Sequence record: DRR378314_695
Strand: one strand, 5' to 3'
Length of the DNA: 46,692 bases
Of this stretch, positions 3,978 through 22,472 are shown piece by piece (the first letter of the stretch is position 1; each line of letters opens with the position of its first letter). Both the position numbers and the translations under genes were made by a program. Below the pieces are notes generated by a model. It was not told the origin of the DNA. It did not search any database and saw only the letters and a program-made list of their open reading frames with translations.

Positions 3978-4073
3978 TGGCGTCTCCAGTTGCGCTCTGA
4001 GCGCAATTCGAAGGCGGCCAAACTAGACCCATGACAAAAGCGAAGCTCGCGCTTTGCAATAGGAAGGATCGAC

Positions 4074-4817: not shown

Positions 4818-4835
4818 TAAAAAAGGAGAGACCCG

Positions 4836-5147: not shown

Positions 5148-5152
5148 CTGAC

Positions 5153-6076
5153 ATGCGTTTCTTGGCAATCGGGGAGTGCATGGCAGAACTTGCCCCAGTA
5201 GATGGGGTTAGGGAGTTCAAGCTTGGTTTTGCGGGCGATACCTTCAACACAGCATGGTATCTTGCACAGGTCGCATCAGACATAGACGTCAGCTATCTGA
5301 CCGCTGTCGGAGACGATGCGATTTCGCAGGACATGCGAACGTTCATGAAAGACAGTCGGATTTGCGATACGCACGTCCAAGTCATCGCAGGTAAAACGGT
5401 TGGGCTATACCTTATCCATCTCAACAATGGTGAACGTAGTTTTTCATATTGGCGCGACGACTCCGCAGCCAGACAACTGGCGGTCGATGAGATTGCACTT
5501 GGGCGGGCAGTTGGAGACGCAGACTTGATCTACTTTTCTGGAATAACTCTCGCCATTCTCGATCCACAATCACGCGAAAAGTTGCTTAATGCATTGCGTC
5601 ATGCGCGTGCGTACGGAATAACTGTAGCCTTCGACACAAACCTGAGACCGCAGCTTTGGTCTTCGCCAAAGGAAATGACAGACACAATCATGGAGGCGGC
5701 GGCACAATCCGATATCGTCCTGCCATCTTACGACGACGAGGCCGAGTGGTTCGGGGATCGCGATTCAATCGCAACGCTGAACCGATATGCTGAGATTGGT
5801 GCGGATCAGATTGTCGTAAAAAACAGCGCTCAGCCAGTGTTGTTTCAGAATGATGGCCAACGCGGGGCGGTGGACGTTGATACAGTGACGAGTGTCGTCG
5901 ATACCACCGCGGCAGGGGACAGTTTCAATGCTGGTGTGTTGGCAAGCGTTATTAGGAACGATGATTTAATTTCCGGAATACGGCAAGGATGTCGCCTTGC
6001 AGGCCGCGTCGTCCGTCACAAAGGCGCGCTCATTCCTATCGAAATAAATCTCCGGAGAGGTGAGGTGGGATGGTGA
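5153..6076 (+). CDS. kdgK: 2-dehydro-3-deoxygluconokinase (PfkB family)
   Basis: IGECMAEL, GDTFNTAWYL, GERSFSYWRDDSAA, FDTNLRPQLW, DTTAAGDSFNAG; alternative GTG start at 5144. Confidence 0.9.
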   Translation: MRFLAIGECMAELAPVDGVREFKLGFAGDTFNTAWYLAQVASDIDVSYLTAVGDDAISQDMRTFMKDSRICDTHVQVIAGKTVGLYLIHLNNGERSFSYWRDDSAARQLAVDEIALGRAVGDADLIYFSGITLAILDPQSREKLLNALRHARAYGITVAFDTNLRPQLWSSPKEMTDTIMEAAAQSDIVLPSYDDEAEWFGDRDSIATLNRYAEIGADQIVVKNSAQPVLFQNDGQRGAVDVDTVTSVVDTTAAGDSFNAGVLASVIRNDDLISGIRQGCRLAGRVVRHKGALIPIEINLRRGEVGW

Positions 6077-6104
6077 TCCCCTATGATCGTGGAGTAACAA
6101 GACC

Positions 6105-7301
6105 ATGAAACAGACCTGGCGGTGGTTTGGCCCTTCCGACGCGATTTCGATTGGTGAAATCAGGCAAACCGGCGCAGCCGGCATCGTCTCAGCCTTGCAC
6201 CATATTCCAACAGGAGAGGCTTGGTCGGTCGAGCACATCAAAGAGCGGCAGCAACAGATAGAACAACCCGGAGGCGTCCCGTCTGGGTTGACTTGGGATG
6301 TTGTTGAAAGCGTGCCGGTATCTGAAGCTATCAAATCGCAAACCGGACCAATGAGACATCACCTTGAAGCGTACAAAGAAACACTACGCAATCTGGCCGG
6401 GTGCGGTATTCAAACGGTCTGCTACAATTTCATGCCCGTATTGGATTGGACGCGGACAGACCTTAGCCATCCGCTGCCGAATGGCGGGCACGCGATGCGG
6501 TTTGATCTTTTGGATTTTGTCGTATTTGATTGTTTCATCCTATGCAGGAAGGGCGCAGAGCAAGACTATTCAGTCGAGATCGTAGAAACCGCACAGGCCC
6601 GGTTTGCAGACCTCGGCGATGGAGATCGCCTGAAACTGTCTAACAATATCGTCGCTGGTTTGCCGGGGGCGAACGACAATTGGTCTCTAGAGGACGTGAA
6701 TCGAAACCTCGACGCATATGTTGACGTGACGCCTAAAATGCTCCGATCCAATCTGGTTGATTTCCTGTCTGAGGTCATCCCAACAGCTGAAGATCTTGGC
6801 ATCCGGTTATGTTGCCATCCTGATGATCCGCCTTTTCCCTTGCTTGGGCTACCAAGGGTCATGTCGTCGCAAAGTGATTACGCCACTGCGCTGAATGCTG
6901 TCGACAGCCCAGCAAATGGGGCAACGCTATGCACCGGTTCATTGGGTGTTGATAAAGAGTTCGACCCCGTGTCTTTCATCGCTCAGCTTGGTCATCAAAT
7001 CCATTTCGTACATCTTCGCAATACAGTGCGCGACGGTCCAAGTGACAACAATCGCCACAGTTTTTCCGAGTCTGAACATCTGGCAGGAGACACCGATATG
7101 GTTGCAACGATCCGCGCCTTGTTGGCCGAGGAACAACGGCGCCGAATTCAGGGACGATCAGATTACGAGATTCCCATGCGACCGGACCACGGCCATGCCT
7201 TGCTGAGCGACCTCACACGTCCGTCACAGCCTGGTTACCCGTTAATAGGCAGGATGCGCGGTCTCGCTGAGCTGCGTGGTGTCATGCGTGGCTGCAATTA
7301 G
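6105..7301 (+). CDS. uxuA: Mannonate dehydratase
   Basis: MKQTWRWFG, CYNFMPVLDWTRTDL, HPDDPP, HFVHLRN, MRPDHGH, PGYPLIGR. Confidence 0.96.
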   Translation: MKQTWRWFGPSDAISIGEIRQTGAAGIVSALHHIPTGEAWSVEHIKERQQQIEQPGGVPSGLTWDVVESVPVSEAIKSQTGPMRHHLEAYKETLRNLAGCGIQTVCYNFMPVLDWTRTDLSHPLPNGGHAMRFDLLDFVVFDCFILCRKGAEQDYSVEIVETAQARFADLGDGDRLKLSNNIVAGLPGANDNWSLEDVNRNLDAYVDVTPKMLRSNLVDFLSEVIPTAEDLGIRLCCHPDDPPFPLLGLPRVMSSQSDYATALNAVDSPANGATLCTGSLGVDKEFDPVSFIAQLGHQIHFVHLRNTVRDGPSDNNRHSFSESEHLAGDTDMVATIRALLAEEQRRRIQGRSDYEIPMRPDHGHALLSDLTRPSQPGYPLIGRMRGLAELRGVMRGCN

Positions 7302-7611: not shown

Positions 7612-8499
7612 CTATTTCAGATAGGTGTTGAACCAATCAATTGTGCGGTCCCAGGCTAAGTTTGCCATCTCCTCGTCATAGCGTGGCGTGCTGTCATTGT
7701 GGAAACCGTGGTTGGCATTTTCGTAGATGTAGGCCTCGTATACCTTGTCGTTGGCCTGCAGGGCGGCCTCAAAATCTGGCCAGCCCGCGTTGATGCGTTC
7801 GTCAAGCTCACCCATCTGAACAAGCAAGGGCGCTTGGATTTTGGCCACATCCTCGGCCGCTGGCTGACGTCCGTAGAACGGCACTCCAGCGGCCAGTTCG
7901 GGATAGGCCACGGCAATTGCGCTAACTACACCGCCGCCATAGCAGAAACCCACAGCGCCGACCTTGCCGGTGCAGTCTTCTCGGTTCAACAGGTATTCAA
8001 ATCCATTGAAGAAATCATTCATCAACTCGACTCGGTCCACAGTCTTTTGCAGGTCGCGCCCATCGGCGTCGTTGCCCGGGTATCCGCCCACCGACGTCAG
8101 GCCGTCGGGGGCCAGTGCCATAAACCCGGCTTTCGCCAATCGGCGCGCCACATCTTCGATGTAGGGATTCAAGCCGCGGTTTTCGTGGATGACCAGCACC
8201 GCGGGCAGCGGCTCTTCCACACCGGCCGGCCGGACAAGGTAGCCACGGACATCACCGGTTCCGTTCGGCGAAGGATAGGTGATGTAATCCGCGTGGATAT
8301 CAGAATCGTTGAATGAAACCTGCTGCGCCATCGCGTAGTTCGGGCTGAGCATGTTCAGCAATGCGGCTGCGGATAAACCACCAACCGCGAACTTACCGGC
8401 GCGGTCCAGAAACTGGCGCTTGGTGATCTTGCCGTGCGCGTAAAAGTCGTACAGGTCCAGAAGTTCCTGGTCGAAATCTTTTGCCGTCATGCGAGTCAT
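7612..8499 (-). CDS. Dienelactone hydrolase family protein (YghX-like)
   Basis: IHENRGLNPYIEDVARR, nucleophile motif GFCYGG, HGFHNDSTPRY; Tat-like KRQFL leader; AGGAG RBS. Confidence 0.9.
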   Translation of the reverse strand: MTRMTAKDFDQELLDLYDFYAHGKITKRQFLDRAGKFAVGGLSAAALLNMLSPNYAMAQQVSFNDSDIHADYITYPSPNGTGDVRGYLVRPAGVEEPLPAVLVIHENRGLNPYIEDVARRLAKAGFMALAPDGLTSVGGYPGNDADGRDLQKTVDRVELMNDFFNGFEYLLNREDCTGKVGAVGFCYGGGVVSAIAVAYPELAAGVPFYGRQPAAEDVAKIQAPLLVQMGELDERINAGWPDFEAALQANDKVYEAYIYENANHGFHNDSTPRYDEEMANLAWDRTIDWFNTYLK

Positions 8500-8588
8500 T
8501 GTAAGTCTCCTTATGAGTTGGCAGTTCGAAGGGTGGGGTATTGTCAGACCAAAAAATATTGGCCTGTTAGAGTTTCTGAGCAGGTCTG

Positions 8589-10112
8589 CTAGGGCACTGC
8601 CGGTTGTAGTTCCTTGTGCGCGTGTTGTTCGCGCAGCACGTTCTTTTGAATCTTTCCCATTGTGTTACGCGGCAGTTCCGGGACGAGTTCATAGCGGCGC
8701 GGATGTTTGAAGCGGGACAGCTTGTCTCTGATGATCCCAGCAATCTGTTCTATGTCAAGTTGTGCGCCGGGTTCGGCAACCAGAGTGGCAATGATCGCTT
8801 CGCCGAAATCGGTGTCCGGAATTCCGAATACAGCCGATTCCAGAACACCATCAATGTCGTTCAGGACGTCTTCAATTTCTTTGGGGTAGACGTTATAGCC
8901 ACCGGTGATGATCAGGTCTTTTGACCGGCCTACGATCGACAGGTAGCCATCCTCGCTGTATTGGCCCAGATCTCCGGTGATGAAAAACCCATTCTCTCGG
9001 AGCTCTTCGGCGGTTTTCTCCGGCATCTGCCAATAGCCTTTGAAAACATTGGGCCCACGCACCTCGATCATTCCAACTTCGCCCTGCGGCAGCGGTTCTC
9101 CAGTTTCGGGGTTTGCCACGATTACCTCGGTGTCGGGTAACGCCATGCCGACAGTTCCCGCGCGACGTTCACCATCATAGGGGTTCGAGGTGTTCATGTT
9201 CGTCTCAGTCATGCCATAGCGTTCAAGAATGCGGTGGCCTGCACGAGCTTCGAACGCCAGGTGCGTCTCGGCCAGCAATGGGGCTGAACCGGAAATGAAC
9301 AGACGCATGCTCCCTGTGACCTCTTTGGTGAAACCTTCATCCGCCAGCAATCTGGTGTAGAAAGTGGGAACCCCCATCAAAAGGGTCGAATGAGGCAGCT
9401 CTTCCAAGATCATCCTCAAGTCGAATTTTTCCATCAAACGAACTTTGGCACCTGCGAGCAATGACGTATTCATCGCCACGAAAAGCCCATGTGTGTGAAA
9501 GACCGGCAGCGCATGAAGCAGTCGATCGGCGTTTGTGATGCCCCACAATTTTACGAGAGTTTGTGCATTGGATAGAAGGTTTTGATGGCTCAGCATCGCG
9601 CCTTTCGAGCGGCCAGTGGTGCCTGATGTATATAGCAAGGCCGCAAGGTCGTCTGGTGCGCGATCCACGGTTTCGAATACGCAAGGTTGTGTGTCTGCCT
9701 CGTGGCTCAGGCTTGGAGTGTCGCCACCAAGAGTCAGCAGCTTTGCGCCGGACCGGGTCGCTAGTTTTTCGATTTCCGCTTCGTCGTTGCTGTCGCAGAC
9801 GATCATCGCTGGCTGGGCGTCAGAGATAAAATAGTCCAGCTCTGCCAACGTATAGGCGGTATTCAGTGGTACGTAGACAGCGCCTACCTGAACCGAAGCA
9901 GCGTAGAGTGCAATCGTATCTGCCAGCTTTGGGGCCTGCACGACAATGCGATCACCTGGGGCAACTCCGCTGTCTTGCAAAAAATGCGCGATCTGCGCGG
10001 CGCGCTTCAGAAACGCGTCATAGGAAACCACTTGGCCATCATCGAGTTGCAGGAATGGTGCTTTGTTACCTTGGTGGCAGGCAAACAGGCTGTCGTAGAG
10101 AAAGTTGGTCAC
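8589..10112 (-). CDS. matB: Malonyl-CoA synthetase (malonate-CoA ligase)
   Basis: YTSGTTGRSKGAMLS, HALPVFHTHGLFVA, ERYGMTET, NPYDGERRAGTVG, PRNTMGKIQKN; overlaps matA. Confidence 0.93.
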   Translation of the reverse strand: MTNFLYDSLFACHQGNKAPFLQLDDGQVVSYDAFLKRAAQIAHFLQDSGVAPGDRIVVQAPKLADTIALYAASVQVGAVYVPLNTAYTLAELDYFISDAQPAMIVCDSNDEAEIEKLATRSGAKLLTLGGDTPSLSHEADTQPCVFETVDRAPDDLAALLYTSGTTGRSKGAMLSHQNLLSNAQTLVKLWGITNADRLLHALPVFHTHGLFVAMNTSLLAGAKVRLMEKFDLRMILEELPHSTLLMGVPTFYTRLLADEGFTKEVTGSMRLFISGSAPLLAETHLAFEARAGHRILERYGMTETNMNTSNPYDGERRAGTVGMALPDTEVIVANPETGEPLPQGEVGMIEVRGPNVFKGYWQMPEKTAEELRENGFFITGDLGQYSEDGYLSIVGRSKDLIITGGYNVYPKEIEDVLNDIDGVLESAVFGIPDTDFGEAIIATLVAEPGAQLDIEQIAGIIRDKLSRFKHPRRYELVPELPRNTMGKIQKNVLREQHAHKELQPAVP

Positions 10113-11407
10113 GATGTATTTTCCCTTGAATTGACCGCAAGCGCTGTGGTCGAAGCTGCGCGAACAGAACGCGAGGCTTCGATCGTGGCATGTGTTGCAA
10201 ATTCTTCGTGATGACGTTCTGTCTTGTTTAAATCGTAAAGGTAGTTGGCCATCGCGCCGCCGGATTGGGACTGTCCATTCGGCGACAGATCAGCTTCAGC
10301 ATGAAGTTCGTGAAGCTCTGCGCCATTCCCAAGGTGAAACCGTGCCACCGGATCCAGAGGCATCCCATCTTCGCGCTTGGCAAACATTAGGTACCGGGCG
10401 GCCATCGCACGCAAGTCCTGCGGCGTGGCTGTTCCCGCAAGCACGGCCTCGGCGGCATGGCCGTGCTCAGAATGTTCTGTTTCGCCAGCCAACCAACGGG
10501 TCAGCCCCGGTATCGGTGACAATGTCACAAATGTATCAAGCCCCAGAAGCTCTCGCGAAAGCTCGGTGACTACCTGTTTGATTAGAAGATTGCCAAAGCT
10601 GATACCCGTTAAACCCCTCTGGCAGTTTGAAATGGAATAGAACGCTGCGACTTTTGCCTGCTCGGCTTCGATCGGTTCTCGACCTTCGGACAAAAGCGTA
10701 TCAATCGCGTCCGGAATATCAGCTGTCAGAGCAACTTCGACGAAAATCAAAGGCTCATCTGGCATCGAAGGATGAAAAAAGGCAAAGCAACGACGATCTG
10801 GCGGGTAGAGCCTACGCCGTAGATCGTCCAGATCGTTGATCTGGTGGACCGCCTCATAAGCAACGACCTTGTCCAGAATGCGGGCAGGAGTATCCCAGCT
10901 GATCTGTTTGAGGACAAGAAAACCTCGATTGAACCAGCTTCGCAGCAAATGGACGAAATCAATGTCGGTCCGTTTGAGTTCGGGATTGGATTCGAGAAAG
11001 CGCAGCAGGTCAACGCGCATAGCCACAAGTTCTTGTGTCGCACCAGACGGCTGATTCAACCGGCGCAACAATTCTTGCCGCCTTGGTTCCGCGACTTCAC
11101 TAAGCTTTTGATATAGTTCGATGCTTCGAGCATCAGCGTAGAGGCGTGCCGTTTCAGCAAGCTGATCTGCGTCTAACTCAAGCTGGTTGTTCAAATAGAT
11201 GAAAAAGTCGATTTTTGCCGGATCGTCCAAGGTCTGGTAGCGATCAAGAATCGTTGAGGCGAGCATGAAGCCCGATACTTCACCTTCAGCGGACAAAAGC
11301 GCCTCACAAAGTTCTGCGATGGATCGTTTGTCATCTTTGCCCCGCCTTTTGCCAGGGCGGTCCAACAATTGGTTTAATAAATCACCCAGAAACCAATTCC
11401 GCTGCAT
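10109..11407 (-). CDS. matA: Malonyl-CoA decarboxylase
   Basis: SWFNRGFL, YEAVH, DRRCFAFFHP, FYSISNCQRGLTGISFGNLLIKQV, TLSPIPG, DPVARFHLGNGA. Confidence 0.94.
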   Translation of the reverse strand: MQRNWFLGDLLNQLLDRPGKRRGKDDKRSIAELCEALLSAEGEVSGFMLASTILDRYQTLDDPAKIDFFIYLNNQLELDADQLAETARLYADARSIELYQKLSEVAEPRRQELLRRLNQPSGATQELVAMRVDLLRFLESNPELKRTDIDFVHLLRSWFNRGFLVLKQISWDTPARILDKVVAYEAVHQINDLDDLRRRLYPPDRRCFAFFHPSMPDEPLIFVEVALTADIPDAIDTLLSEGREPIEAEQAKVAAFYSISNCQRGLTGISFGNLLIKQVVTELSRELLGLDTFVTLSPIPGLTRWLAGETEHSEHGHAAEAVLAGTATPQDLRAMAARYLMFAKREDGMPLDPVARFHLGNGAELHELHAEADLSPNGQSQSGGAMANYLYDLNKTERHHEEFATHATIEASRSVRAASTTALAVNSRENTS

Positions 11408-11408
11408 T

Positions 11409-12074
11409 TCAGGAACCCATCTGACTGCTCAGGTACTCACCCGTTCGACGGTAGTGATCGATCAAATGACCAGTTGCACTATCCGCGTCGCGATCAAGTG
11501 CCGCGTCCAGTATCTGCTGATGCTCTGCGGAGATATCGCGTTTCTTGTAACTCGACCCACCCGCCGCCAAATAGCGGTAGCGAATGTTCAGGTCGTAGAG
11601 CTGCGAACAATATCGCAGCAGCAATGGCAATTTCGCATTGTCCAACAATGCCATATGAAACGCTTTATGCGCGTCTTCAAAGTCGTGTGCCTCATTTTGA
11701 CTGGCTTTTTTCATATGGTGGTGACGCAAAACAAGCCTGTCCTCCCAAGCCGCATCCGCGTTTGCGATGGAGGCGCGCAACGCCGTTTCTTCGAGGTTGC
11801 ACCGCAGCAGAAGGATTTCCTCGAAGTTACTCTTGCTCACTGGCGCAGCCCTGAACCCGCGTTGGTCAATCCGCTCGACCAGCATGTCTGAGGTCAAAAG
11901 GCTAAGCGCCTCGCGAACCGGGCTTGCGCCGGTGTCCAGTAGCCCACGAAGCTGCTCGATCTTTAGCTTTTGTCCGGGCGGCAATTCGCCGGTCAGGATC
12001 ATTTCGCGCAGCCTTCGATACGCACCATGAGTGGCTGATGATTCTTTGCCCTCGGTATCAAGCATGGCGTCCAT
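11409..12074 (-). CDS. GntR/FCD family regulator
   Basis: GELPPGQKLKI, GASPVREAL, QRGFRAAP, HKAFH, EHQQI. Confidence 0.9.
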   Translation of the reverse strand: MDAMLDTEGKESSATHGAYRRLREMILTGELPPGQKLKIEQLRGLLDTGASPVREALSLLTSDMLVERIDQRGFRAAPVSKSNFEEILLLRCNLEETALRASIANADAAWEDRLVLRHHHMKKASQNEAHDFEDAHKAFHMALLDNAKLPLLLRYCSQLYDLNIRYRYLAAGGSSYKKRDISAEHQQILDAALDRDADSATGHLIDHYRRTGEYLSSQMGS

Positions 12075-12115
12075 ATCCGACTGTTCCTTTTTGGCGGCGC
12101 ATATCTTGGGTGCTT

Positions 12116-12502
12116 TTAACTGAGGGCACTCGTTCCAGTCGATAGACCAACTGAAAGGTTCAGCGAGCCCTCGTTTATCATCCAGCGTCGAAGTACAAAA
12201 CTGCGCGCCCCACTTTTATGCATGGGATCGTCCTCGGCCTGCTTTCGGGCGGCTTCGAGACTGTCAGCGCGATAGATGATCAGGCCAACCCCTTGCATAT
12301 GCTCTCCAGTTTCATCCGACATCGGTCCGGCAAAAGCCAACAGCCCAGCACGTTCAAGATCCGCCTGATACGCCAAGTGATCTGGAAGTGATGCCTTTAC
12401 ATCTTCGGGCGCTTTGGCCGGTGTGCTGAGTGCAACATAAAGCTCCAAAGCAAGTGCTCCACGGCTCTTTGCTTCTGATTTGTAGTCTGCCCAAGCAACC
12501 AT
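12116..12502 (-). CDS. YciI family protein
   Basis: LPDHLAYQ, FAGPM, GLIIYRADS, EDDPMH motifs; GGAG RBS before ATG 12502. Confidence 0.85.
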   Translation of the reverse strand: MVAWADYKSEAKSRGALALELYVALSTPAKAPEDVKASLPDHLAYQADLERAGLLAFAGPMSDETGEHMQGVGLIIYRADSLEAARKQAEDDPMHKSGARSFVLRRWMINEGSLNLSVGLSTGTSALS

Positions 12503-12512
12503 CAGTGTCTCC

Positions 12513-12531
12513 AAAAATATCGATATTATTT
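12513..12531. promoter_or_regulatory. Candidate GntR operator in the YciI/FAH divergent promoter
   Basis: Perfect palindrome AATATCGATATT (12516-12527) in the short AT-rich divergent gap. Confidence 0.6.
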
Positions 12532-12585
12532 GACATATGCCAAAATAGTCGGCAAAAATCAAGCGAACTGACATGGATGGTGAAA

Positions 12586-13470
12586 ATGAAATACCTGGTG
12601 GGAGAAACCTCAGAAGGAACTGCGGTATTTGCCGTAAACGGCGAAAACGCAGTGAATTTAACGGCTTTAGACCCTGCCGTCGGTTCCGATCTGATGGGTT
12701 TGATAGCCAAGCCAGAACTGGCCGACTCACTCACTGACAAAATCGCAACTGCAGGCAGTGTACCTGTGTCCTCGGTCACGCCAGCGTTGCCCGTCGCAGC
12801 GCCCGGCACGATCATTTGCATGGGGTTGAACTATACGGACCACATCAAAGAAGGCGGCTACGACATCCCCGAATATCCGACGCTGTTCATGCGCGGGAAG
12901 AACTCGATCATGGCGGCGGGGCAGCCCATGGTGCGGCCAGCATGTTCTGAGAAACTGGACTACGAAGCCGAACTTATGCTGATTGTCGGAAAACGTGGCC
13001 GCCATATCTCGGAAGAGGACGCGCTGGATTATGTCTTTGGCTATACCGTGTTCAATGACGGGTCTCTGCGGGACTATCAGCGCAAGACGGTCCAGTGGAC
13101 GCCCGGTAAAAACTTCGATGATACGGGCGCGATCGGTCCTTTCACCGTAACGCCGGACGAACTGCCCGAAGGGGCGTCCGGTCTGAAGATCGAAAGCCGT
13201 GTGGGCGATGAAATCCTACAAAGCTCGAACACGGCCAACATGATTTGGGGCGTTCGTCAGGTCATTGCGACGATTTCGGAATATACCACTCTAGAGCCCG
13301 GAGATCTGATTGCGTTGGGCACGCCGCCGGGTGTCGGCCACGCCAAAAAGCCTAATCCGCGTTGGTTGAAGCCGGGCGAAACCGTCGAGATCGAGATTGA
13401 AGGCATCGGCATTTGCGCTAGCCCGATCATCGACGAAAAGGACGCCAAATCAAGGGTGGCTGTGGCATGA
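12586..13470 (+). CDS. Fumarylacetoacetate hydrolase family protein
   Basis: ICMGLNYTDH, LDYEAEL, FNDGSLRDYQ, GKNFD, LEPGDLIALGTPPGVG. Confidence 0.92.
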   Translation: MKYLVGETSEGTAVFAVNGENAVNLTALDPAVGSDLMGLIAKPELADSLTDKIATAGSVPVSSVTPALPVAAPGTIICMGLNYTDHIKEGGYDIPEYPTLFMRGKNSIMAAGQPMVRPACSEKLDYEAELMLIVGKRGRHISEEDALDYVFGYTVFNDGSLRDYQRKTVQWTPGKNFDDTGAIGPFTVTPDELPEGASGLKIESRVGDEILQSSNTANMIWGVRQVIATISEYTTLEPGDLIALGTPPGVGHAKKPNPRWLKPGETVEIEIEGIGICASPIIDEKDAKSRVAVA

Positions 13471-14132
13471 GCGCACCGACCGGGGCAGAGCTGGAGGCAC
13501 TTCGCGCCAAGGCGCAGCAAGATCATCGCGATCTGCGCGAACGCATTCCGCGTTTGTCGGATGACGCGATTGCCTTGATCCTGCGCGAATCCAGATCGCA
13601 CTACGCGTGGACCGACAAGCCAGTTTCTGACGATTTACTTGAAGAAATCTACGACATTACGATCAACGGCGCGACGAGTATGAACACACTTCCCGCGCGC
13701 TTTATCTTCGTGAAAAGCGCCGAGGGAAAAGAGCGGCTTGCCAAGTCGTTAAAGCCGAAGAACGTACCGAAGATGATGGATGCGCCCGTCACGGCGATCA
13801 TTGCATATGACATGGATTTCTGGAAGGAGCTGCCCTTTCTTTTTCCGCACGAAGACCGTCGGCCATTGTTCGAAAACAAACCCGACTACGTGGCGGACAC
13901 TGCGTTTCGCAATGGAACGCTTCAGGGCGCTTACTTCATGATAGCCGCCCGCGCCGTCGGGTTGGACGTTGGCGCGATGTCAGGTTTTTCGAACAAGATC
14001 GTCGATGAAGAATTCTTTGAGGGAACAACGCTCAAGTCGAACTTTCTGTGCAATCTGGGCTACGCCGATGAAACAGGTTTGTTCCAAAAGCTTCCGCGTT
14101 TTCCATTCGAAAAGGTTTGCTCTTATGCATGA
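13467..14132 (+). CDS. rutE: RutE-like nitroreductase (malonic semialdehyde reductase family)
   Basis: RSHYAW, GATSMNTLPARF, AFRNGTLQGAY, GLDVGAMSGF, SNFLCNLGY, LPRF; actual substrate not established. Confidence 0.8.
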   Translation: MSAPTGAELEALRAKAQQDHRDLRERIPRLSDDAIALILRESRSHYAWTDKPVSDDLLEEIYDITINGATSMNTLPARFIFVKSAEGKERLAKSLKPKNVPKMMDAPVTAIIAYDMDFWKELPFLFPHEDRRPLFENKPDYVADTAFRNGTLQGAYFMIAARAVGLDVGAMSGFSNKIVDEEFFEGTTLKSNFLCNLGYADETGLFQKLPRFPFEKVCSYA

Positions 14133-14144
14133 GGAGGTGACGCT

Positions 14145-14606
14145 GTGGCTATGAAAGTGAAACCTGTTGTGACTTATCGCACGACAGCTCAGTGCCCGAC
14201 ACATGCGCGTACCGAGATCCCAATTCGCGATCTTAATGTGGTTGTCGACGAACCGATCGAACGCGGCGGAACAAACCTTGGCCCGTCCCCGACCGAGACC
14301 GCAATGGCTGCCCTGATCGCCTGTACCAATGTCATCGGGCATAAGAACGCGCACCGGTTAGGAATTGATCTTGGCACTGTGACAATCGACGCGAAATGCA
14401 GGTTGGATCGGCGCGGCGTTCTGATGGAGGAGGAGATCGATGTTCCATTTCCTGAAATCGAACTCACCGTGAAATGTCACACACCCGCCAGTCAGGAGGA
14501 GCTGACACGGGTGGGCGAAGAAACAGCCAAGTATTGCGCCATCGCGAAACTATTTGAAGCGGCAGGCACGGACCTGACCGTCAACTGGGTCAAAACAAAC
14601 CAATAA
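14145..14606 (+). CDS. OsmC family protein
   Basis: DEPIERGGTNLGPSPTE, ALIAC and YCAI (two Cys); GAGGAGG RBS. Confidence 0.85.
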   Translation: MAMKVKPVVTYRTTAQCPTHARTEIPIRDLNVVVDEPIERGGTNLGPSPTETAMAALIACTNVIGHKNAHRLGIDLGTVTIDAKCRLDRRGVLMEEEIDVPFPEIELTVKCHTPASQEELTRVGEETAKYCAIAKLFEAAGTDLTVNWVKTNQ

Positions 14607-14639
14607 AAATAAAAGACCCGACTTTCTGGGAGGAGAGAA

Positions 14640-15713
14640 ATGAAAATCTGGACCAAACGCAGCCTTATGGGTGCTGCTCTGGCAAGCGTCATGGCGCTGC
14701 CCGCCGCAGCAGAAGAAACTATTTCTGCCGTTGTCATCGATGGCTACCCGGACCGGGCATTGTGGGTGAAGGAGTTCACCAACTTCTTCATTCCGGAAGT
14801 GGACAAGCGACTTGCTGAATCCGGCGACTACAAGATGAACTGGCAAGAGAACTATGGCGGTTCAATCGTAAAGCCGAAAGGCGTTCTGGAAGGTATCCAG
14901 TTGGGCCTTGGTGACATAGGCATCGTCACAACCATCTTCCATTCCTCGAAACTGCCTAGCCAGGGTATTTCAGGATCGACACCCTTTGTGGCATCGGATT
15001 CCCGTGCCGTGGCCAAAGCCGTAGATGAAATCGCACGCGAATACCCGGCAATGCAGAACGAGTTTGCCGCACAGAACCAGGTGTATCTGGCCACGGGTGT
15101 TGTCCTCGACACATATCAGATTTTCTGCACGGAACCGGTTGCTTCCGTTTCGGACCTTGAGGGCCGCAAGATTGCTGGTGCAGGGCTTAACCTGCGGTAT
15201 CTCGAAGGCATCAAGGATGCGGCAGGTGTACGAGGTGGTCTGACCGATTTCTACAACATGCTTCAAACCGGGCTTGTGGATTGCGGAATGCTGTGGCCCG
15301 AAGCGGCGAAGACGTTCAAGATCGCTGAAGTTGCGCCCTATATGCTCAAGGCTGATCTGGGTGCTGTGAACTCAAAGACCATCACGGTCAACGCCGACTA
15401 TTGGGCAAATCTCCCGGACGAGGTCAAAGACGTGTTGACGGCGGTTGCCATCGACTACCGTGACCATGTCGCTGGTATTGCAATGGACAGGGCTGCTGCT
15501 TCGCGGGATGCTTATGTTGAAGCGGGCGGAACGATCGTTGAAGTTTCGGACGAAGACCGCGCTGCCTGGGCAAATGCCATGCCGAATGTCGCGCAGGAGT
15601 GGGCCGCGACGCTGAATGACAACGGCGAACAGGGCACAGAGATGCTGGCCGCCTATCTTGGCAAGCTTCAAGACGCTGGTTTTACCGGAGTGCGCGACTG
15701 GACGGCCGAATAA
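14640..15713 (+). CDS. dctP: TRAP transporter substrate-binding protein
   Basis: Signal peptide; DLEGRKI, FYNMLQTGLVD, KIAEVAPY, WANLPDEVK; first gene of a TRAP triad. Confidence 0.88.
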   Translation: MKIWTKRSLMGAALASVMALPAAAEETISAVVIDGYPDRALWVKEFTNFFIPEVDKRLAESGDYKMNWQENYGGSIVKPKGVLEGIQLGLGDIGIVTTIFHSSKLPSQGISGSTPFVASDSRAVAKAVDEIAREYPAMQNEFAAQNQVYLATGVVLDTYQIFCTEPVASVSDLEGRKIAGAGLNLRYLEGIKDAAGVRGGLTDFYNMLQTGLVDCGMLWPEAAKTFKIAEVAPYMLKADLGAVNSKTITVNADYWANLPDEVKDVLTAVAIDYRDHVAGIAMDRAAASRDAYVEAGGTIVEVSDEDRAAWANAMPNVAQEWAATLNDNGEQGTEMLAAYLGKLQDAGFTGVRDWTAE

Positions 15714-15743
15714 CCGTCTGGCGATCCACGAAAGGGGCCTTTC

Positions 15744-16295
15744 ATGCTGAAGACCGCAGTTTCTGGCCTGTCGCGGGTCGCCAATTCACTCGCAATCGCT
15801 GCCAACGCCTTGGGTACGCTTGTCGTCCTAGCGTTGGTGGTTGTGCTGAATGTCGACGTCATTGCACGTGGCCTGTTTTCAGCCCCGCTGCGTGGCACTT
15901 ATGAGATGGTGCAATTCTCGGTCGTGATGATCGTCTTTTTACAGCTGGCAGATGTGGTCAGAGTTGACAGGCTGACACGCTCGGACGGGTTCCTGAACCT
16001 GCTACACCATCGTCGCCCGGGCCTAACAGCCAACCTGAGGCGCATCATCAACGCCATCTCGGCGATCTTCATGGCATTGATCGCCTATGTGACATTCCCT
16101 GAATTCCTACACATGTGGCAGACGCAGGACTACTTCGGAGTTCCGGGTCTTTTTACATTGCCATGGTGGCCGGTAAAATTGGTCATCGCGTGCGGGACTG
16201 CGCTTGCCTGCGTGATCTTCCTGCTAAAGGTCGTCACGGCGCAGGACCGCCCGCAACTTGTCCGCACCCCAGAACATGACGAGGCCGCAGAATGA
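15744..16295 (+). CDS. dctQ: TRAP transporter small permease
   Basis: DVIARGLFSAPLRGTYEMV; 4 TM segments; position in the triad. Confidence 0.88.
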   Translation: MLKTAVSGLSRVANSLAIAANALGTLVVLALVVVLNVDVIARGLFSAPLRGTYEMVQFSVVMIVFLQLADVVRVDRLTRSDGFLNLLHHRRPGLTANLRRIINAISAIFMALIAYVTFPEFLHMWQTQDYFGVPGLFTLPWWPVKLVIACGTALACVIFLLKVVTAQDRPQLVRTPEHDEAAE

Positions 16296-17596
16296 CGCCG
16301 ATTGAGATTGGCCTGATCTCGGTCGTTGCCATTGTTTTCCTGATTTACGCGGGTGTCTACATTCCCATCGCGCTGGGCGTCGTCTCGTTCGTGTCGATCT
16401 GGTTGATGCGGGACAACTTCATGCTAGCGCTTAACCTGCTGAAAGTGGCGGTCGGCGACAGCGCGATGGAATATAGCTTCGCGACAATCCCACTGTTTAC
16501 CTTCATGGGGCTCATCGTTTCAAAGGCTGGGTTGGGCAGGGATATTTACGAAGTCATGACCATGCGGTTTCGTAAGGTCAAAGGCGGCATTGGGATGGCG
16601 ACAGTCGGGGCCAATGCCGTTTTTGCCGCGGTGACAGGGTCATCAATCGCGTCGGCATCCGTGTTCACCAAAGTCTCAGTGCCTCAGATGATGGCGCAGG
16701 AGTACAATCCACGTTTTGCTGTGGGCGTGGTGGCAGGATCCTCGGTTTTGGGGATGATCATCCCGCCATCGGCGATGCTGATCATCTACTCCTTTGTTGC
16801 TGAACAATCCGTAGGGGACATGTTCCTTGCCGGGGTCATTCCCGGGATCATGTTGGCGATCGCCTATGTTGGCGCGATCTGGGCCATGGGCCGATTCACA
16901 CCGGCGTTCGTCGGTGGCCGCATCGTGGCAGATACCGAATGGATGTCCGGGCGCGAGATTGCGTCCAAAACCCTGCCGACATTGTGCATCATCACTATCG
17001 TTCTTGGGGGGATCTACACTGGCTGGCTTACTGCGGTCGAGGCAGGAGCAGCCGGTGCCTTCGTGGCTTTGATCATCGCTGTCCTGCGCAGGTCTATGTC
17101 CCCAAAGGCGTTTTGGGACGCGTTGCTGGAAACCGGTCATATCACAGCGGCGATCCTGTTCCTAATCACAGCGGCATCGATCTACAGCCGCATGTTGGGA
17201 CTGGCCGGTCTGCCCAACCAATTGCAGGACTTACTTGCAGGGAATTCCGCGTCCTTCTGGTCGATCATGTTGCTCTACGTCCTGTTAATGTTGTTTCTGG
17301 GAACATTGCTGGATACGGCATCCATCATTCTGATCGTCGTCCCGTTGTTCCTGCCTATGGCCGAAGCGCTGGATATGTCACTGATCTGGTTTGGGATCAT
17401 CACTGTGGTTGGAGCTGAGATCGGGCTTTTAACCCCGCCGCTGGGCATATCCTGCTTTGTTATAAAATCCACGATCAACGATGATCGCATCTCGCTGAAG
17501 GACGTGTTTATGGGCGCGCTGCCTTTCGCCTTTGTAATGCTGATCGTTCTGTTCATTCTGATCGAGTTCCCGATCCTCAGCCTTGCCCTGATTTAA
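16292..17596 (+). CDS. dctM: TRAP transporter large permease
   Basis: IPLFTFMG, AVTGSSIAS, GMIIPPS, EIGLLTPPLG. Confidence 0.92.
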   Translation: MTPIEIGLISVVAIVFLIYAGVYIPIALGVVSFVSIWLMRDNFMLALNLLKVAVGDSAMEYSFATIPLFTFMGLIVSKAGLGRDIYEVMTMRFRKVKGGIGMATVGANAVFAAVTGSSIASASVFTKVSVPQMMAQEYNPRFAVGVVAGSSVLGMIIPPSAMLIIYSFVAEQSVGDMFLAGVIPGIMLAIAYVGAIWAMGRFTPAFVGGRIVADTEWMSGREIASKTLPTLCIITIVLGGIYTGWLTAVEAGAAGAFVALIIAVLRRSMSPKAFWDALLETGHITAAILFLITAASIYSRMLGLAGLPNQLQDLLAGNSASFWSIMLLYVLLMLFLGTLLDTASIILIVVPLFLPMAEALDMSLIWFGIITVVGAEIGLLTPPLGISCFVIKSTINDDRISLKDVFMGALPFAFVMLIVLFILIEFPILSLALI

Positions 17597-17606
17597 GGAG
17601 GCCAAG

Positions 17607-18473
17607 ATGCGCTCTGTCACCAAAGACAATATCACCGACGTGTTCATGGGATACCTGCCCAAAGACACCGATCCGAGGATGCGTGAAATCATGGGATCTC
17701 TGGTTAGGCATCTCCACGAATTCGCCCGTGAAACCAACCTGACGCATGACGAATGGCGCACGGGAATTGCATTCTTGGAAGGTTGTGCAGCTGTAGAAAC
17801 CGAAGACAGGCATGAGTTCGTCTTGGCCTCGGATGTATTGGGCCTGTCATCGCTGGTGGATATGCTCCATTCAACTCCAGACGCCACAAGCTCTTCTGTT
17901 CTTGGGCCTTTTCACGTCTCTGGCGCACCTGCTTTGGCATTCGGGGGTGATATGAAGCGTCACTACGGTGGGTCGGTTCTACTTGCCGAAGGCGTTATCC
18001 GGGATGTTGAGGGTAATCCGATTGCCGGGGCGGAACTCGACATCTGGCAAACGGCACCAAATGGAATGTATGCAAGCCAGGATGAAGAACAGGACACCTA
18101 TTCTTTTCACGGCCTGATGACTACCGGCGAAGACGGTAAGTATGCATTCACGACCGTCAAGCCGGTGGAATACACCGTACCGTCTGATGGGCCGGTCGGG
18201 GATATTCTACGCGCTTGCGGTCGCCACCCGTGGAGACCGTCGCACCTGCACTATATCGTTAAGGCACCCGGCCACCGATCTTTGGTTACCGAGATTTTTC
18301 CCGACGACGATCCTTACTTGGATCAGGACACAGTGTTTGGTGTTCGGGATGACCTGGTGATGACTTATGTTGAAAGGCCGGCTTCAGAATTTCCTGAAGG
18401 CATGGAGCTTTCTGGCAAGATCACTGAACCTTTCTTGCACGTAAAGTTCGATGTGAAGCTTGCCAGTGTCTGA
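17607..18473 (+). CDS. Intradiol ring-cleavage dioxygenase (hydroxyquinol/catechol 1,2-dioxygenase family)
   Basis: LASDVLGLS, LGPFH, DIWQ; Fe(III) ligands in NGMY, YTVP and WRPSHLH; DTVFGV. Confidence 0.92.
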   Translation: MRSVTKDNITDVFMGYLPKDTDPRMREIMGSLVRHLHEFARETNLTHDEWRTGIAFLEGCAAVETEDRHEFVLASDVLGLSSLVDMLHSTPDATSSSVLGPFHVSGAPALAFGGDMKRHYGGSVLLAEGVIRDVEGNPIAGAELDIWQTAPNGMYASQDEEQDTYSFHGLMTTGEDGKYAFTTVKPVEYTVPSDGPVGDILRACGRHPWRPSHLHYIVKAPGHRSLVTEIFPDDDPYLDQDTVFGVRDDLVMTYVERPASEFPEGMELSGKITEPFLHVKFDVKLASV

Positions 18474-18743
18474 ATGCTATTGGGGATGATTGAGATACTG
18501 AAGCAAACCTTTATTTTAGGCTGAAGACACCTAGTCAGAACATGACGGTAGCTGCGAGGTCGATTGCAAATCGGATGACTTCTAGTCATCGGTCATAGCA
18601 GGTGGTCACGCACTACCAATCTTTCAGACGACCAAACATGATCTCAATCCGGTTACACCTGAAATAGCGAAGCATGTCGTACTCGATGATTTTATCGGGT
18701 GGCCTACGCCCTATGATACAGGGCTATATTCCCCTACACCTCG

Positions 18744-19385: not shown

Positions 19386-20048
19386 CTACATCGCCTCCAA
19401 GGTATGAGCGAGGCCATTTCGGATGTGATCTTCCAAAAGCTTCTTGGCCGTATCGGCGTCTCTGGTCAACGCAGCGTCGAACATACCCTTGTGCTCCTTG
19501 ACTGCCTCTTCGCCGCGATAGGTCAGCACGAGCATCTGATACCGCAGATACTTATCGTAGATGATTGAGTGCAGAGACAGAAGGTTCTTGGAGTTGCAGG
19601 CCGCAATCATCGCTTGGTGGAACTCCCAATCATACCGTTTCCAAGTCTCTTTCTCGGAATCGTCGCCCTTGAGAAGCTGCTGCTCAATCAAGTGCAGCTT
19701 ATGATGCGCAGCAACCAGGTTTCCTTCCCAATCCGTGTCGCCGCTCGCAATCGACAATTCCAGCGCGTGGCATTCCAGCAGGACGCGCAATTCGGCTATT
19801 TCAGTCAAATCTTCGCGAGAGACCGGAGTGACCAGGAAACCCCGTTGTTCCGGCGCTTCGACAAACCCGTCGCTGGCAAGCCTGTTGAGGGTTTCACGAA
19901 GTGTCGAAAGACTTGCCGAGTAGCGCTCTTTCAATGCGTCCAGCTTCAGTTTGGAGCCGGGCTGCAACTCTCCAAAGATGATATCTCGTTTGATGCGCTG
20001 ATAGGTGCTTGCACCTATTGTAGACGGCTGTTTCGCCATGCTTTTCAC
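19386..20048 (-). CDS. GntR/FCD family regulator (resembles 11409-12074)
   Basis: GELQPGSKLKL, TLRETL, EQRGF, DWEFH, YLRYQ, EHKGM; alternative ATG at 20039. Confidence 0.9.
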   Translation of the reverse strand: MKSMAKQPSTIGASTYQRIKRDIIFGELQPGSKLKLDALKERYSASLSTLRETLNRLASDGFVEAPEQRGFLVTPVSREDLTEIAELRVLLECHALELSIASGDTDWEGNLVAAHHKLHLIEQQLLKGDDSEKETWKRYDWEFHQAMIAACNSKNLLSLHSIIYDKYLRYQMLVLTYRGEEAVKEHKGMFDAALTRDADTAKKLLEDHIRNGLAHTLEAM

Positions 20049-20248
20049 CCGATATTTTTAGATTCCTCCTTCAGGTACCATTTTTAGGAGTTATCAGCAA
20101 TCCAATGTGATGTATGGTAGAAATAAAAATATCATACATTATTGCGGAATCGTAAAAACAACAATACGGTCGTGGCCAAGTTGAGCAATACAGCTCGGTC
20201 GCAAACACAGGTTTCGGTATTTTTCCGGATCCTCCGGAAGGAAGTAGA

Positions 20249-21331
20249 GTGTCTAAGAACTTTCGCGTTGCCATAGTCGGCATTGGCCTTGTTGGACGCC
20301 GCCACGCAGACGCAATTCGAGCGTTGCGTCATGTCGATCTTGTGGCGGTCGTCGATCCCAGTGACGAAGGCCGCGCATATGCCGATGAGCATGGGGTTGA
20401 GTGTTACGAGACCCTCGAGGAGATGTTTGCAAACCAATCGCCGGATGGCGCTGTGCTTGCGACCCCGACGACACTTCATGTAGAACAAGGCCTTACGTGT
20501 GTTCGACACGGTTGCCCCGTTCTTGTCGAAAAGCCAATTGCTGTGGAAGCCATTGCAGCCCTGGAGCTTGTTCAGCAGGCCGAGAAGGCAAATGTGCCGC
20601 TCATGGTTGGGCATCATCGTCGACACAATCCCCTGATCAAGTCAGCCAAAGAAGCGATTGCAAGCGGGAAGATCGGTGACGTCCGAGCAGTCCATGCGAA
20701 CTGTTGGTTTTATAAGCCCGACGAGTATTTTGATGCCGCTCCCTGGCGAAAGAAACCAGGGGCAGGTCCCATCTCGGTCAATCTGGTTCATGACGTTGAT
20801 CTTTTAAGGCATCTGGCCGGAGAGGTCATAACCGTCCAGGCACAATCTGCTGTTTCACAGCGCGGTTATGACAACGAAGATGTTGCCGGAGCGCTGTTGA
20901 CATTCGAAGGCGGAGCGATTGGCACCATAAGTGTTTCTGACAGCATCGTTGCTCCGTGGAGCTGGGAGATGACATCTCAGGAATATCCAATTTACCCGTC
21001 CACCACCGAAAGCAGCTACATGATTGGGGGCTCACATGGGTCGTTGTCTGTCCCGGATCTCCGACTATGGAGCTACCAGGGCGGGCAAAGGGACTGGTGG
21101 ACGTCAATCTCGTCAACGGCGCTGAAGAAAGGTGCATCTGACCCGTTGGTCAATCAGCTCAGGCACTTTGTTGAAGTTGCTCGGCATGAAGCAGATCCGA
21201 TCGTGTCCGGATGGGAAGGCTTTAGAACACTTCAAGTTATTGAAGCCATACAGAATTCCTGCAGAACTGGCGAGGTGATCAGGATCGAATCCTTTCAAAA
21301 GTCACCTATGGCAAATGTACCGGTGGCATAA
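20249..21331 (+). CDS. Gfo/Idh/MocA family NAD(P)-dependent oxidoreductase
   Basis: GIGLVGRRH, ATPTTLH, VEKP, GHHRRHNP, NLVHDVD. Confidence 0.9.
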   Translation: MSKNFRVAIVGIGLVGRRHADAIRALRHVDLVAVVDPSDEGRAYADEHGVECYETLEEMFANQSPDGAVLATPTTLHVEQGLTCVRHGCPVLVEKPIAVEAIAALELVQQAEKANVPLMVGHHRRHNPLIKSAKEAIASGKIGDVRAVHANCWFYKPDEYFDAAPWRKKPGAGPISVNLVHDVDLLRHLAGEVITVQAQSAVSQRGYDNEDVAGALLTFEGGAIGTISVSDSIVAPWSWEMTSQEYPIYPSTTESSYMIGGSHGSLSVPDLRLWSYQGGQRDWWTSISSTALKKGASDPLVNQLRHFVEVARHEADPIVSGWEGFRTLQVIEAIQNSCRTGEVIRIESFQKSPMANVPVA

Positions 21332-21346
21332 AATATCAGATATTTT
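21330..21346. promoter_or_regulatory. Candidate GntR operator upstream of the third TRAP operon
   Basis: Palindrome AAAATATC-A-GATATTTT, repeated exactly at 30166-30182. Confidence 0.7.
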
Positions 21347-21431
21347 GTAAAACATCTTGCAAAATGTCCAAAATAGGTCAAAACTTGGAATCGTCAAAAA
21401 GAAGCATCATGATGTCTCAGGGAGGAGCAAA

Positions 21432-22442: not shown

Positions 22443-22472
22443 GTTCTGTAAAACTAGGGAGGGAGAACCGCA

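Follow-up and report, generated by a model that had tools for sequence, protein, structure and literature searches.

Positions 7612 to 18473 of the 46,692-nucleotide stretch DRR378314_695, which was analysed at full length and is referred to here as the window, hold twelve genes in two operons that are transcribed away from each other from a 74-bp control region. This gene set probably constitutes a ring-cleavage module for a polyhydroxybenzene or hydroxyquinone that is functionally coupled to malonate catabolism. The grouping of the genes is far beyond chance, because the set recurred in 93 of 98 distinct ortholog loci. More tentatively, and at just short of an even chance, the cluster may be a catabolic island under GntR control that acts on a readily autoxidising polyhydroxybenzene, with 1,2,3,5-tetrahydroxybenzene or its quinone form as the simplest fit. 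Only the gene families and their linkage were observed directly; each chemical step proposed below is one that we infer.

A first-pass annotation of this DNA had described a divergent unit joining a hydroxyquinol-type dioxygenase and an FAH-superfamily enzyme to malonate activation and decarboxylation. All the genes that it named were recovered in their places; five of the twelve, the RutE-like, OsmC, YCII, GntR and YghX genes, had been omitted. The leftward operon comprises, in order of transcription:

12116..12502, minus strand: YciI/YCII-domain protein of 128 amino acids, the first leftward gene (PF03795, 50.4 bits)
11409..12074, minus strand: GntR/FCD-family regulator (PF00392 and PF07729)
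10109..11407, minus strand: MatA malonyl-CoA decarboxylase (PF05292, 303.3 bits; PF17408, 76.9 bits; PDB 4ksa, 1.9e-112)
8589..10112, minus strand: MatB malonyl-CoA synthetase (NF005702, 758 bits against a cut-off of 558; PDB 4fuq, 1.3e-175)
7612..8499, minus strand: YghX-family alpha/beta hydrolase with the dienelactone hydrolase fold (PF01738, 154.5 bits; NF041440, 558.9 bits against a cut-off of 460)

The rightward operon comprises, in order:

12577..13470, plus strand: FAH-superfamily enzyme, proposed malonylpyruvate (2,4-dioxoadipate) hydrolase (PF01557, 222.6 bits)
13467..14132, plus strand: RutE-like nitroreductase-fold flavoprotein (NF003768, 254.9 bits against a cut-off of 152; PF00881)
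14145..14606, plus strand: OsmC/Ohr-type thiol peroxidase-like protein (PF02566, 53.7 bits)
14640..15713, plus strand: TRAP substrate-binding protein, DctP type (PF03480, 83.2 bits)
15744..16295, plus strand: TRAP small membrane subunit DctQ (PF04290)
16292..17596, plus strand: TRAP large membrane subunit DctM (PF06808, 266 bits; TIGR00786, 301 bits against a cut-off of 268)
17607..18473, plus strand: hydroxyquinol-type intradiol dioxygenase (PF00775, 131.4 bits; PF04444, 85.9 bits; both above cut-off)

Base composition was uniform over the region, and matA and matB overlap by 4 bases. The YCII gene starts at the ATG at 12502, which is preceded by GGAG, and the longer open reading frame listed there is an artefact, as read from the sequence. 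The start codon of the FAH gene lies at 12577 or 12586.

To compare loci, the window proteins were located by tblastn in 20-kb neighbourhoods of dioxygenase orthologs, and a match was accepted if it spanned 40% or more of the query and passed an identity threshold set for each family (38-60%). After removal of duplicates with identical dioxygenase DNA there were 117 distinct ortholog loci, and in 98 of these the upstream flank extended over 9 kb or more. TRAP genes lay beside the dioxygenase gene in 93 of these 98, and the dioxygenase stood alone in five. Among the 93 loci, each of the other genes was found as follows:

DctQ: 93/93
RutE-like: 92/93
YCII: 91/93
GntR: 90/93, at its position in the window or just after the dioxygenase
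OsmC: 81/93
FAH: 80/93
MatA: 63/93
MatB: 44/93
YghX: 6/93, all in Ruegeria

The combinations of the FAH and malonate genes were:

FAH + MatA + MatB: 43 loci
FAH only: 26 loci
MatA only: 10 loci
FAH + MatA: 10 loci
none of FAH, MatA and MatB: 3 loci
FAH + MatB: 1 locus

The constant core therefore consists of the transporter, flavoreductase, YciI protein, dioxygenase and regulator, and FAH and matAB form a variable shell. YghX, the last gene of the leftward operon, is accessory. The counts are not counts of independent events, because the loci are relatives.

The link to malonate catabolism was followed in a sample of the Rhodobacteraceae that took one genome from each of 301 genera. MatA was present in 113 of the 301. 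It occurred in 38 of the 42 genomes with a dioxygenase ortholog (in one as a fragment only) compared with 75 of the 259 others. Among the 37 ortholog genomes with a full copy, 27 carried MatA within 10 kb of the dioxygenase, and in nearly all of them it was the sole copy. Where MatB adjoined the cluster, FAH was always present (44/44), and none of the 13 loci lacking FAH had MatB.

In two further loci, independent rearrangements had brought FAH and the malonate genes together. At L148 the genes run in one direction, DctPQM-dioxygenase-FAH-MatA-MatB. The transporter and dioxygenase of this locus were 75-86% identical to those of the window, whereas its FAH, MatA and MatB were only 43-56% identical, which suggests that the FAH-MatA-MatB genes were recruited separately. 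At L200 (genome G272, contig 9, 6112-11604) a stand-alone MatB-MatA pair diverges from an FAH ortholog (70%) between unrelated flanks; this unit also carries a GntR gene of the cluster type (58%) and an FAH paralog (37%), and G272 has FAH in its dioxygenase cluster as well. The linkage of dioxygenase, FAH and matAB claimed by the first-pass annotation is thus conserved, in the MatA and MatB counts as well as at L148 and L200, but within the set it is FAH and matAB that vary.

If the association were fortuitous, a malonate operon of regulator, matA, matB and TRAP importer would simply have come to lie beside a gene for aromatic ring cleavage. The literature does describe a TRAP importer for malonate, matPQM. 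In a control set of 20 matAB loci of the family not adjoining the dioxygenase, 16 had a TRAP system directly beside MatA. However, all 16 belonged to another TRAP family and the window-type TRAP occurred in 0/20, so the window TRAP is not the usual malonate importer. In 93 of 98 loci the window-type TRAP also accompanied the dioxygenase, and 30 of these 93 have no MatA; its binding protein lacks the carboxylate-binding arginine, and one conserved operator serves both operons (see below). On this linkage, TRAP family, arginine loss and common operator we rejected chance adjacency, which we regard as extremely improbable. The matAB genes inside the cluster appear to have lost their importer. Together with the MatA and MatB counts and the L148 and L200 layouts, this fits production of malonate within the cell by the FAH step, for which no importer would be expected.

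Separately, in two MatA-only loci (L047, 13082-16629; L072, 3203-6676) a second TRAP system and a conserved gene of about 165 codons with no family match lie directly beside MatA. This second TRAP is possibly a malonate importer.

The dioxygenase was compared with solved structures and curated families. Its best structural matches were all of hydroxyquinol type (PnpC 3n9t, 1.7e-71; 1tmx, 2.5e-68; 8r2x, 1.5e-62), far ahead of the best catechol 1,2-dioxygenase (1.9e-37), and all NCBIfam equivalogs for catechol and chlorocatechol dioxygenases scored it under their cut-offs. Residues Y155, Y189, H213 and H215 were invariant in 17 orthologs; we take them to be the iron ligands from the Tyr...Tyr...His-x-His pattern. 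The clade is marked by the motifs TSSSVLGPFH and WRPSHLH. Matches at E<=1e-40 were found in 116 of the 301 Rhodobacteraceae genomes and their identities were bimodal: 42 genomes had an ortholog at 52-97%, and, two gene fragments aside, no other match exceeded 48%. By sequence, the window dioxygenase is a member of a distinct clade of the hydroxyquinol type.

These relationships bear on a route in which hydroxyquinol or 2-hydroxy-1,4-benzoquinone is the substrate. The dioxygenase would form maleylacetate, the RutE-like protein would replace maleylacetate reductase in making 3-oxoadipate, ordinary enzymes would finish the degradation, and FAH and matAB would be add-ons. True hydroxyquinol dioxygenases are the nearest solved relatives of the window enzyme, and the constant core of TRAP, RutE-like, YCII and dioxygenase genes, with FAH and matAB varying and 13 loci without FAH, also speaks for such a route. 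However, it gives no role to MatA, present in 63 of 93 loci and usually as the only copy in the genome, and it does not explain the FAH-matAB units of L148 and L200. The dioxygenase also stands in its own clade, and its identity to other hydroxyquinol-type enzymes of the Rhodobacteraceae does not exceed 48%. We know of no maleylacetate reductase with the nitroreductase fold, which counts against this route too, and we consider it unlikely.

The genes that would normally follow a hydroxyquinol dioxygenase were looked for directly. Pfam scans of the window's long open reading frames found no protein of the Fe-ADH (maleylacetate reductase) type and none of the 3-oxoadipate CoA-transferase or thiolase type, in agreement with the first-pass annotation. 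The same scans showed no flavoprotein aromatic hydroxylase, whose absence had likewise been noted, and neither the DUF3500 ring-cleavage protein family nor that of the decarboxylating flavin monooxygenases. For conserved neighbours, all open reading frames of 60 loci were clustered and the recurrent families scanned, with 42 Rhodobacteraceae ortholog loci among them. No Fe-ADH-type gene recurred in these 42. The only further recurrent gene in the ortholog loci was similar to isopropylmalate, homocitrate and citramalate synthases (HMGL-like, under all equivalog cut-offs). It was found in five clustered loci (L046, 16043-17263; L047; L059; L060; L072), after the regulator, and all five lack FAH; it might substitute for the FAH step there.

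Under the reading that we prefer, the TRAP system would first import 1,2,3,5-tetrahydroxybenzene or its quinone form through a binding protein that lacks the usual arginine. The RutE-like flavoprotein would reduce the quinone to the quinol and hold it reduced, while the OsmC protein would clear the peroxides of autoxidation. The dioxygenase would then cleave the ring between two hydroxylated carbons to give 2,4-dihydroxymuconate, which would be in equilibrium with a lactone and with malonylpyruvate (2,4-dioxoadipate). The YciI-like protein, joined in Ruegeria by the YghX hydrolase, may handle the lactone or a tautomer, a natural role for both if a lactone is formed. The FAH enzyme would split malonylpyruvate into malonate and pyruvate, and MatB and MatA would turn the malonate into acetyl-CoA and CO2. 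We favour 1,2,3,5-tetrahydroxybenzene because hydroxyquinol-type cleavage, an instability that calls for a reductase and a peroxidase, and a yield of malonate all fit it. In seawater this compound would largely be present as an acidic quinone, which would suit both an arginine-less TRAP protein and an obligatory reductase.

Several reports are consistent with parts of this scheme. Acetopyruvate is the decarboxylation product of malonylpyruvate. PMC10832562 describes 1,2,3,5-tetrahydroxybenzene as very prone to autoxidation and unstable even at low pH, records that hydroxyquinol dioxygenases convert its 6-methoxy analogue, and cites reports of bacteria degrading phloroglucinol to acetopyruvate through it. 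The chemistry put forward in the first-pass annotation thus appears sound and remains the simplest fit, with partial precedent.

The FAH enzyme was nearest among solved structures to the C-terminal half of HpcE (1gtt, whole-protein E-value 9.9e-60), and diketo-deoxyrhamnonate hydrolase (8gsr, 4.3e-47) was also among the nearest. All named NCBIfam equivalogs scored below cut-off, the best being 2,4-didehydro-3-deoxy-L-rhamnonate hydrolase (191.5 bits against 500), and models for HpaG-type decarboxylase/isomerases gave similar scores, also below cut-off. The segments GLNY..HIKE, DYEaELM and FNDGS, the metal and dyad motifs of the N-Y-x-D-H-x-x-E type, were kept in 93 orthologs and presumably serve in metal binding and as the catalytic dyad. 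Since HpcE is the nearest solved relative and no equivalog cut-off was reached, hydrolysis by this enzyme is put forward as a proposal. The window enzyme shares its fold and its metal and dyad motifs with FAHD1, with acetylpyruvate hydrolase and with the 8gsr hydrolase; unlike these acylpyruvate hydrolases it lies under every equivalog cut-off, and malonylpyruvate is not described as their substrate in the sources that we found. Acylpyruvase activity of FAHD1 is recorded in PMC3196145.

The HpcE match leaves room for a pyrogallol-type substrate, whose intradiol cleavage would give 2-hydroxymuconate, with the FAH protein acting as an HpcE-like decarboxylase/isomerase on the oxalocrotonate-type product. 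For yeast, PMC10832562 describes a catechol-like dioxygenase that turns pyrogallol into 2-hydroxymuconate. The cluster, however, encodes neither a hydratase nor an aldolase to complete such a route, and MatA and MatB would go unexplained, so that this substrate seems very unlikely to us.

The RutE-like protein found its best structural match in IstO (7vqk, 1.2e-26). Scans of the cluster genes revealed no Rut pyrimidine-degradation family besides RutE itself, and none recurred in the 42 clustered loci. We propose, by analogy, that it acts as a hydroxyquinone reductase. TcpB belongs to the nitroreductase family. Quinone reductases such as HadB and TcpB are regular companions of hydroxyquinol pathways (PMC6922536).

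A different use of the RutE-like protein would follow if the imported compound were 2,5-dihydroxy-1,4-benzoquinone. Reduced to 1,2,4,5-tetrahydroxybenzene and cleaved, it would give 3,4-dihydroxymuconate (3,4-dioxoadipate) and then malonate and malonic semialdehyde, and the RutE-like protein would be a true malonic semialdehyde reductase. The malonate-related families would all keep their annotated roles, as the protein scores above the NF003768 cut-off and MatA and MatB are well identified; the near-invariance of the RutE-like gene (92/93) would be accounted for, and the strongly acidic, dianionic quinone could suit a Dct-type transporter without the usual arginine. Cleavage of a 1,2-diketone is not, to our knowledge, a known FAH reaction, which counts against this scheme. 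The cluster also has no thiamine-dependent enzyme, no report of such chemistry was found, and the tracking of FAH by MatB would be unexplained. We judge it quite unlikely. Any probability left over by these readings belongs to a substrate that we have not thought of.

Cysteines C60 and C131 of the OsmC protein were both kept in 92 orthologs. For the YCII protein, H42, D92 and H95 were invariant among orthologs and D63 nearly so. A search with the single sequence gave no match to solved structures; the ortholog profile gave borderline matches to TftG (4lbh, 9.4e-4) and HI0828 (8.8e-4) in which the histidine of HLAY was aligned. Both D63 and D92 are candidates for the partner of the histidine in a dyad. 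TftG is a YciI-family dehydrochlorinase of 5-chlorohydroxyquinol with a His-Asp dyad (PMC7641849), and a YciI-family gene adjoins the hydroxyquinol dioxygenase gene pnpC in pnp clusters (PMC6063337).

A number of results weigh against coupling to malonate or against the proposed route. FAH was missing in 13 of the 93 loci and MatA was missing beside the cluster in 30, and in 20 loci MatA had no MatB next to it. Five MatA-only genomes contained no FAH ortholog anywhere, just paralogs of 37-45%; MatB was elsewhere in three of these, partial in one and not found in one. The near-complete genomes G256 and G098 have an FAH-containing cluster and no MatA match at all. An independent-pairs test of FAH against MatB on the dioxygenase tree had only six usable pairs, about 3.4 of them concordant and 0 opposite, and with a median p of 0.25 it was underpowered. 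At the level of the enzymes, the FAH sequence resembles the HpcE decarboxylase/isomerase no less than it does a diketo-acid hydrolase, and the RutE-like protein exceeds the curated cut-off for malonic semialdehyde reductase (NF003768), a reaction that the proposed route does not need. A conserved arginine of the binding protein, in the motif NLRY seven residues after Ala179, might replace the canonical one, so that the ligand may still be a carboxylate. Finally, among the clustered loci no hydroxylase capable of converting phloroglucinol to the substrate was conserved nearby.

This last result concerns the origin of the substrate. Phloroglucinol, the monomer of brown-algal phlorotannins, had been named as the source in the first-pass annotation. 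No gene making tetrahydroxybenzene was present in the window or the conserved neighbourhood, and because no hydroxylase is conserved nearby a phloroglucinol or phlorotannin origin is not supported; there is no gene behind it.

The TRAP binding protein was examined for clues to its ligand. Its matches to solved TRAP binding proteins were weak (best 7nr2, 1.3e-14). In pairwise alignments, Ala179 (codon 15174-15176) stood at the column of the arginine in the K-I/V-R motif, which was arginine in all five aligned PDB proteins. Among 102 orthologs this column held alanine in 101 and glycine in one, and the segment AGAG(L/M)NLRYLEGI was strictly conserved. Six binding proteins encoded beside paralogous dioxygenases had serine at the canonical arginine column. 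The conserved arginine of TRAP proteins is described as a filter that limits substrates to carboxylates (PMC4646407 and PMC11668362). The substitution hints, but does not prove, that DctP binds something other than an ordinary carboxylate; if the proposed route is correct, DctP would break with the carboxylate rule of its binding-protein family.

The control region contains two features:

12516..12527, no strand assigned: perfect palindrome of 12 bp, AATATCGATATT, which lies 2 nt before the rightward -35 box and is a candidate operator for GntR
12530..12559, plus strand: rightward promoter-like site, TTGACA, 18-nt spacer, AAAAAT (a consensus match only, 10/12)

The TTGACA site was the top promoter-like match of the region. 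The palindrome overlaps a promoter-like site of the leftward operon as well. The compared intergenic regions kept the motif A(A/T)ATCGAT(A/T)TT followed by the TTGAC box, even between genera with protein identities of just 50-70%. The full palindrome with TTGAC occurred exactly once per genome, always at the cluster, in five of five genomes searched. Most simply, the palindrome would be the operator of the cluster's GntR protein, common to both operons, and the GntR/FCD regulator is a probable repressor of both. The bare palindrome had extra copies in two of the five genomes. Those inspected (1/1 in G001 and 1/5 in G235) were intragenic and chance-like and were rejected as regulon members; with the extra matches inspected in part, the search of the five genomes gave no further regulon member and no hydroxylase.

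Compared with known systems and judged from its gene families, the cluster begins like a hydroxyquinol pathway and ends like a pathway for acylpyruvate and malonate. The bacterial hydroxyquinol enzymes (PnpC/PnpE, the 1tmx enzyme, TcpC/TcpD, HadC) belong to pathways with the same dioxygenase family, and these likewise have a quinone reductase (PMC6922536) and a YciI-family gene (PMC6063337). Unlike them, the window has a separate dioxygenase clade, no hydroxylase, TRAP uptake, and a proposed exit through FAH and matAB in place of 3-oxoadipate; because it also has no maleylacetate reductase, it is not the classical hydroxyquinol pathway.

The fungal 1,2,3,5-tetrahydroxybenzene pathway (Martins et al. 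2023, PMC10832562) passes through the same intermediate as proposed here, whose instability fits the reductase and peroxidase genes of the window. It includes an FAH-like step after ring cleavage, and its lactone, 5-hydroxydienelactone, needs a dedicated small protein. However, the fungi start with a decarboxylating monooxygenase acting on gallate, cleave the ring with a DUF3500 protein where the window has an intradiol dioxygenase, and form end products of the acetopyruvate type. Malonate occurs 0 times in the main text of that article, and the fungal cluster as presented there has neither matAB nor TRAP genes. The window cluster is not this pathway, since it has no DUF3500 protein and no monooxygenase.

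Bacterial phloroglucinol catabolism, as described by Armstrong and Patel (1993, cited in PMC10832562), hydroxylates phloroglucinol to the same intermediate and has a late 2,4-diketo acid, acetopyruvate. As far as our searches went, that study is biochemical and names no genes. The window differs from this route in having no hydroxylase and in a predicted split to malonate and pyruvate that would precede decarboxylation. Plain matAB utilisation loci (MatB and MatA of Rhizobium and Rhodopseudomonas; Sinorhizobium matPQM) share the enzyme families and have a GntR-family regulator alongside. In the window the genes are instead embedded in a ring-cleavage cluster under a common operator, and because the usual malonate importer is missing this is not a plain malonate locus.

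In the literature within our reach, which excluded most subscription journals, we found no bacterial genes assigned to aerobic cleavage of 1,2,3,5-tetrahydroxybenzene and no link between a hydroxyquinol-type dioxygenase and matAB. The first-pass annotation had allowed that related chemistry might already be published. The fungal and bacterial tetrahydroxybenzene routes in PMC10832562 are such a precedent for the chemistry, but not for bacterial genes.

According to PMC10832562, aerobic bacterial breakdown of phloroglucinol or 1,2,3,5-tetrahydroxybenzene is known only biochemically. The genes by which bacteria degrade algal phenols of the phloroglucinol type in the presence of oxygen have been missing, and they could be those of this cluster. 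The gene set can be put to the test in marine bacteria that grow in culture, among them Ruegeria, Tateyamaria, Yoonia, Planktotalea, Roseibium and Pacificitalea. If the proposed route is correct, a malonate-yielding exit would be added to the intradiol ring-cleavage pathways and a physiological source of malonate in the sea would be identified; malonylpyruvate as a metabolite, and its cleavage by an FAH enzyme, are not yet described as far as our literature search found. Four poorly understood families (RutE-like, YciI, OsmC-like and YghX) would also gain roles, and the route would bear on the use of brown-algal phenolics by roseobacters. A more far-reaching version seems to us rather improbable: the cluster would be the complete aerobic route of roseobacters for phloroglucinol-type algal phenols, its arginine-less TRAP system the first in its class with a phenol or hydroxyquinone that is no carboxylate as cargo, its YciI protein an oxygenase or tautomerase without cofactor by which 1,2,3,5-tetrahydroxybenzene is made or prepared for cleavage by the dioxygenase, and its FAH enzyme the source of malonate and pyruvate from malonylpyruvate.

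The distribution of the cluster was marine throughout. The 93 compared loci came from Rhodobacteraceae, Stappiaceae and a few others. The window is taken to belong to a marine bacterium of the Ruegeria type: the closest dioxygenase homologs were from Ruegeria (96%), with R. atlantica CECT 4292 (locus L097, dioxygenase 96% identical) among the named loci, and the nearest genome, G001, had 83% of sampled words in common with the window. The other named carriers were Tateyamaria, Yoonia, Planktotalea, Pacificibacter, Shimia, Roseibium/Labrenzia, a metagenome-assembled genome (MAG) of Rhodobiaceae, one MAG labelled Oceanospirillaceae and one labelled Granulosicoccaceae. Pacificitalea manganoxidans carries the cluster on a 112-kb plasmid, with the genes under generic RefSeq names only. 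Wider sampling added few orthologs: 401 genomes sampled across the class yielded two more, in other families (66% and 63%), and 401 sampled across the phylum yielded one more, again in the same family.

Paralogous hydroxyquinol-type dioxygenases (41-46%) were seen in another recurrent cluster of Rhodobacteraceae (L073, L076, L078, L079, L083 and L087). This cluster contains a TRAP system (DctP 31-33%), YCII (42%) and FAH (40%) proteins, a family III CoA-transferase, a citryl-CoA-lyase-like gene, an IclR regulator and an amidohydrolase. From its gene content it looks like a second uncharacterised module of TRAP, YCII and dioxygenase.

Four small RNA-library runs from one sample (X1-X4) contained contigs of a relative about 91% identical to the window, matching 7616-8513 and 12591-18482. 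The block from FAH to the dioxygenase lay on a single contig in one run, and YghX was on another contig with different flanks; the matAB stretch was left uncovered. The RNA library also contained contigs of tens of kilobases, and the relative's contigs are therefore no proof of transcription.

Downstream of the cluster, at 19386-34317, the window holds a second catabolic cluster. It encodes a GntR regulator, three GFO/IDH/MocA oxidoreductases, a second TRAP DctPQM system, a QuiC-like dehydratase fused to an HPPD-like domain (540 bits against a cut-off of 1200), a citryl-CoA-lyase-like protein (NF004864, 440.6 bits against a cut-off of 261), a TIM-barrel protein, a SauS-like acylating aldehyde dehydrogenase and a thiamine-dependent enzyme. 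Its substrate is possibly a cyclitol or sugar acid. A link to the ring-cleavage cluster, through a dehydroshikimate-dehydratase-like enzyme making polyhydroxybenzenes from cyclitols, was considered and dropped because the two were adjacent only in the nearest genome, G001; they were not adjacent in nine named Ruegeria loci or at any other locus.

Upstream, at 79-7301, is a hexuronate-type utilisation cluster with a GntR regulator, a TRAP binding protein and fused permease, an SDR, a KdgK-like kinase (below cut-off) and the mannonate dehydratase UxuA; it looks ordinary. At 41959-42831 an open reading frame of 290 amino acids with no Pfam match lies upstream of genes for a DUF1611 protein and an alanine-racemase-N-domain protein.

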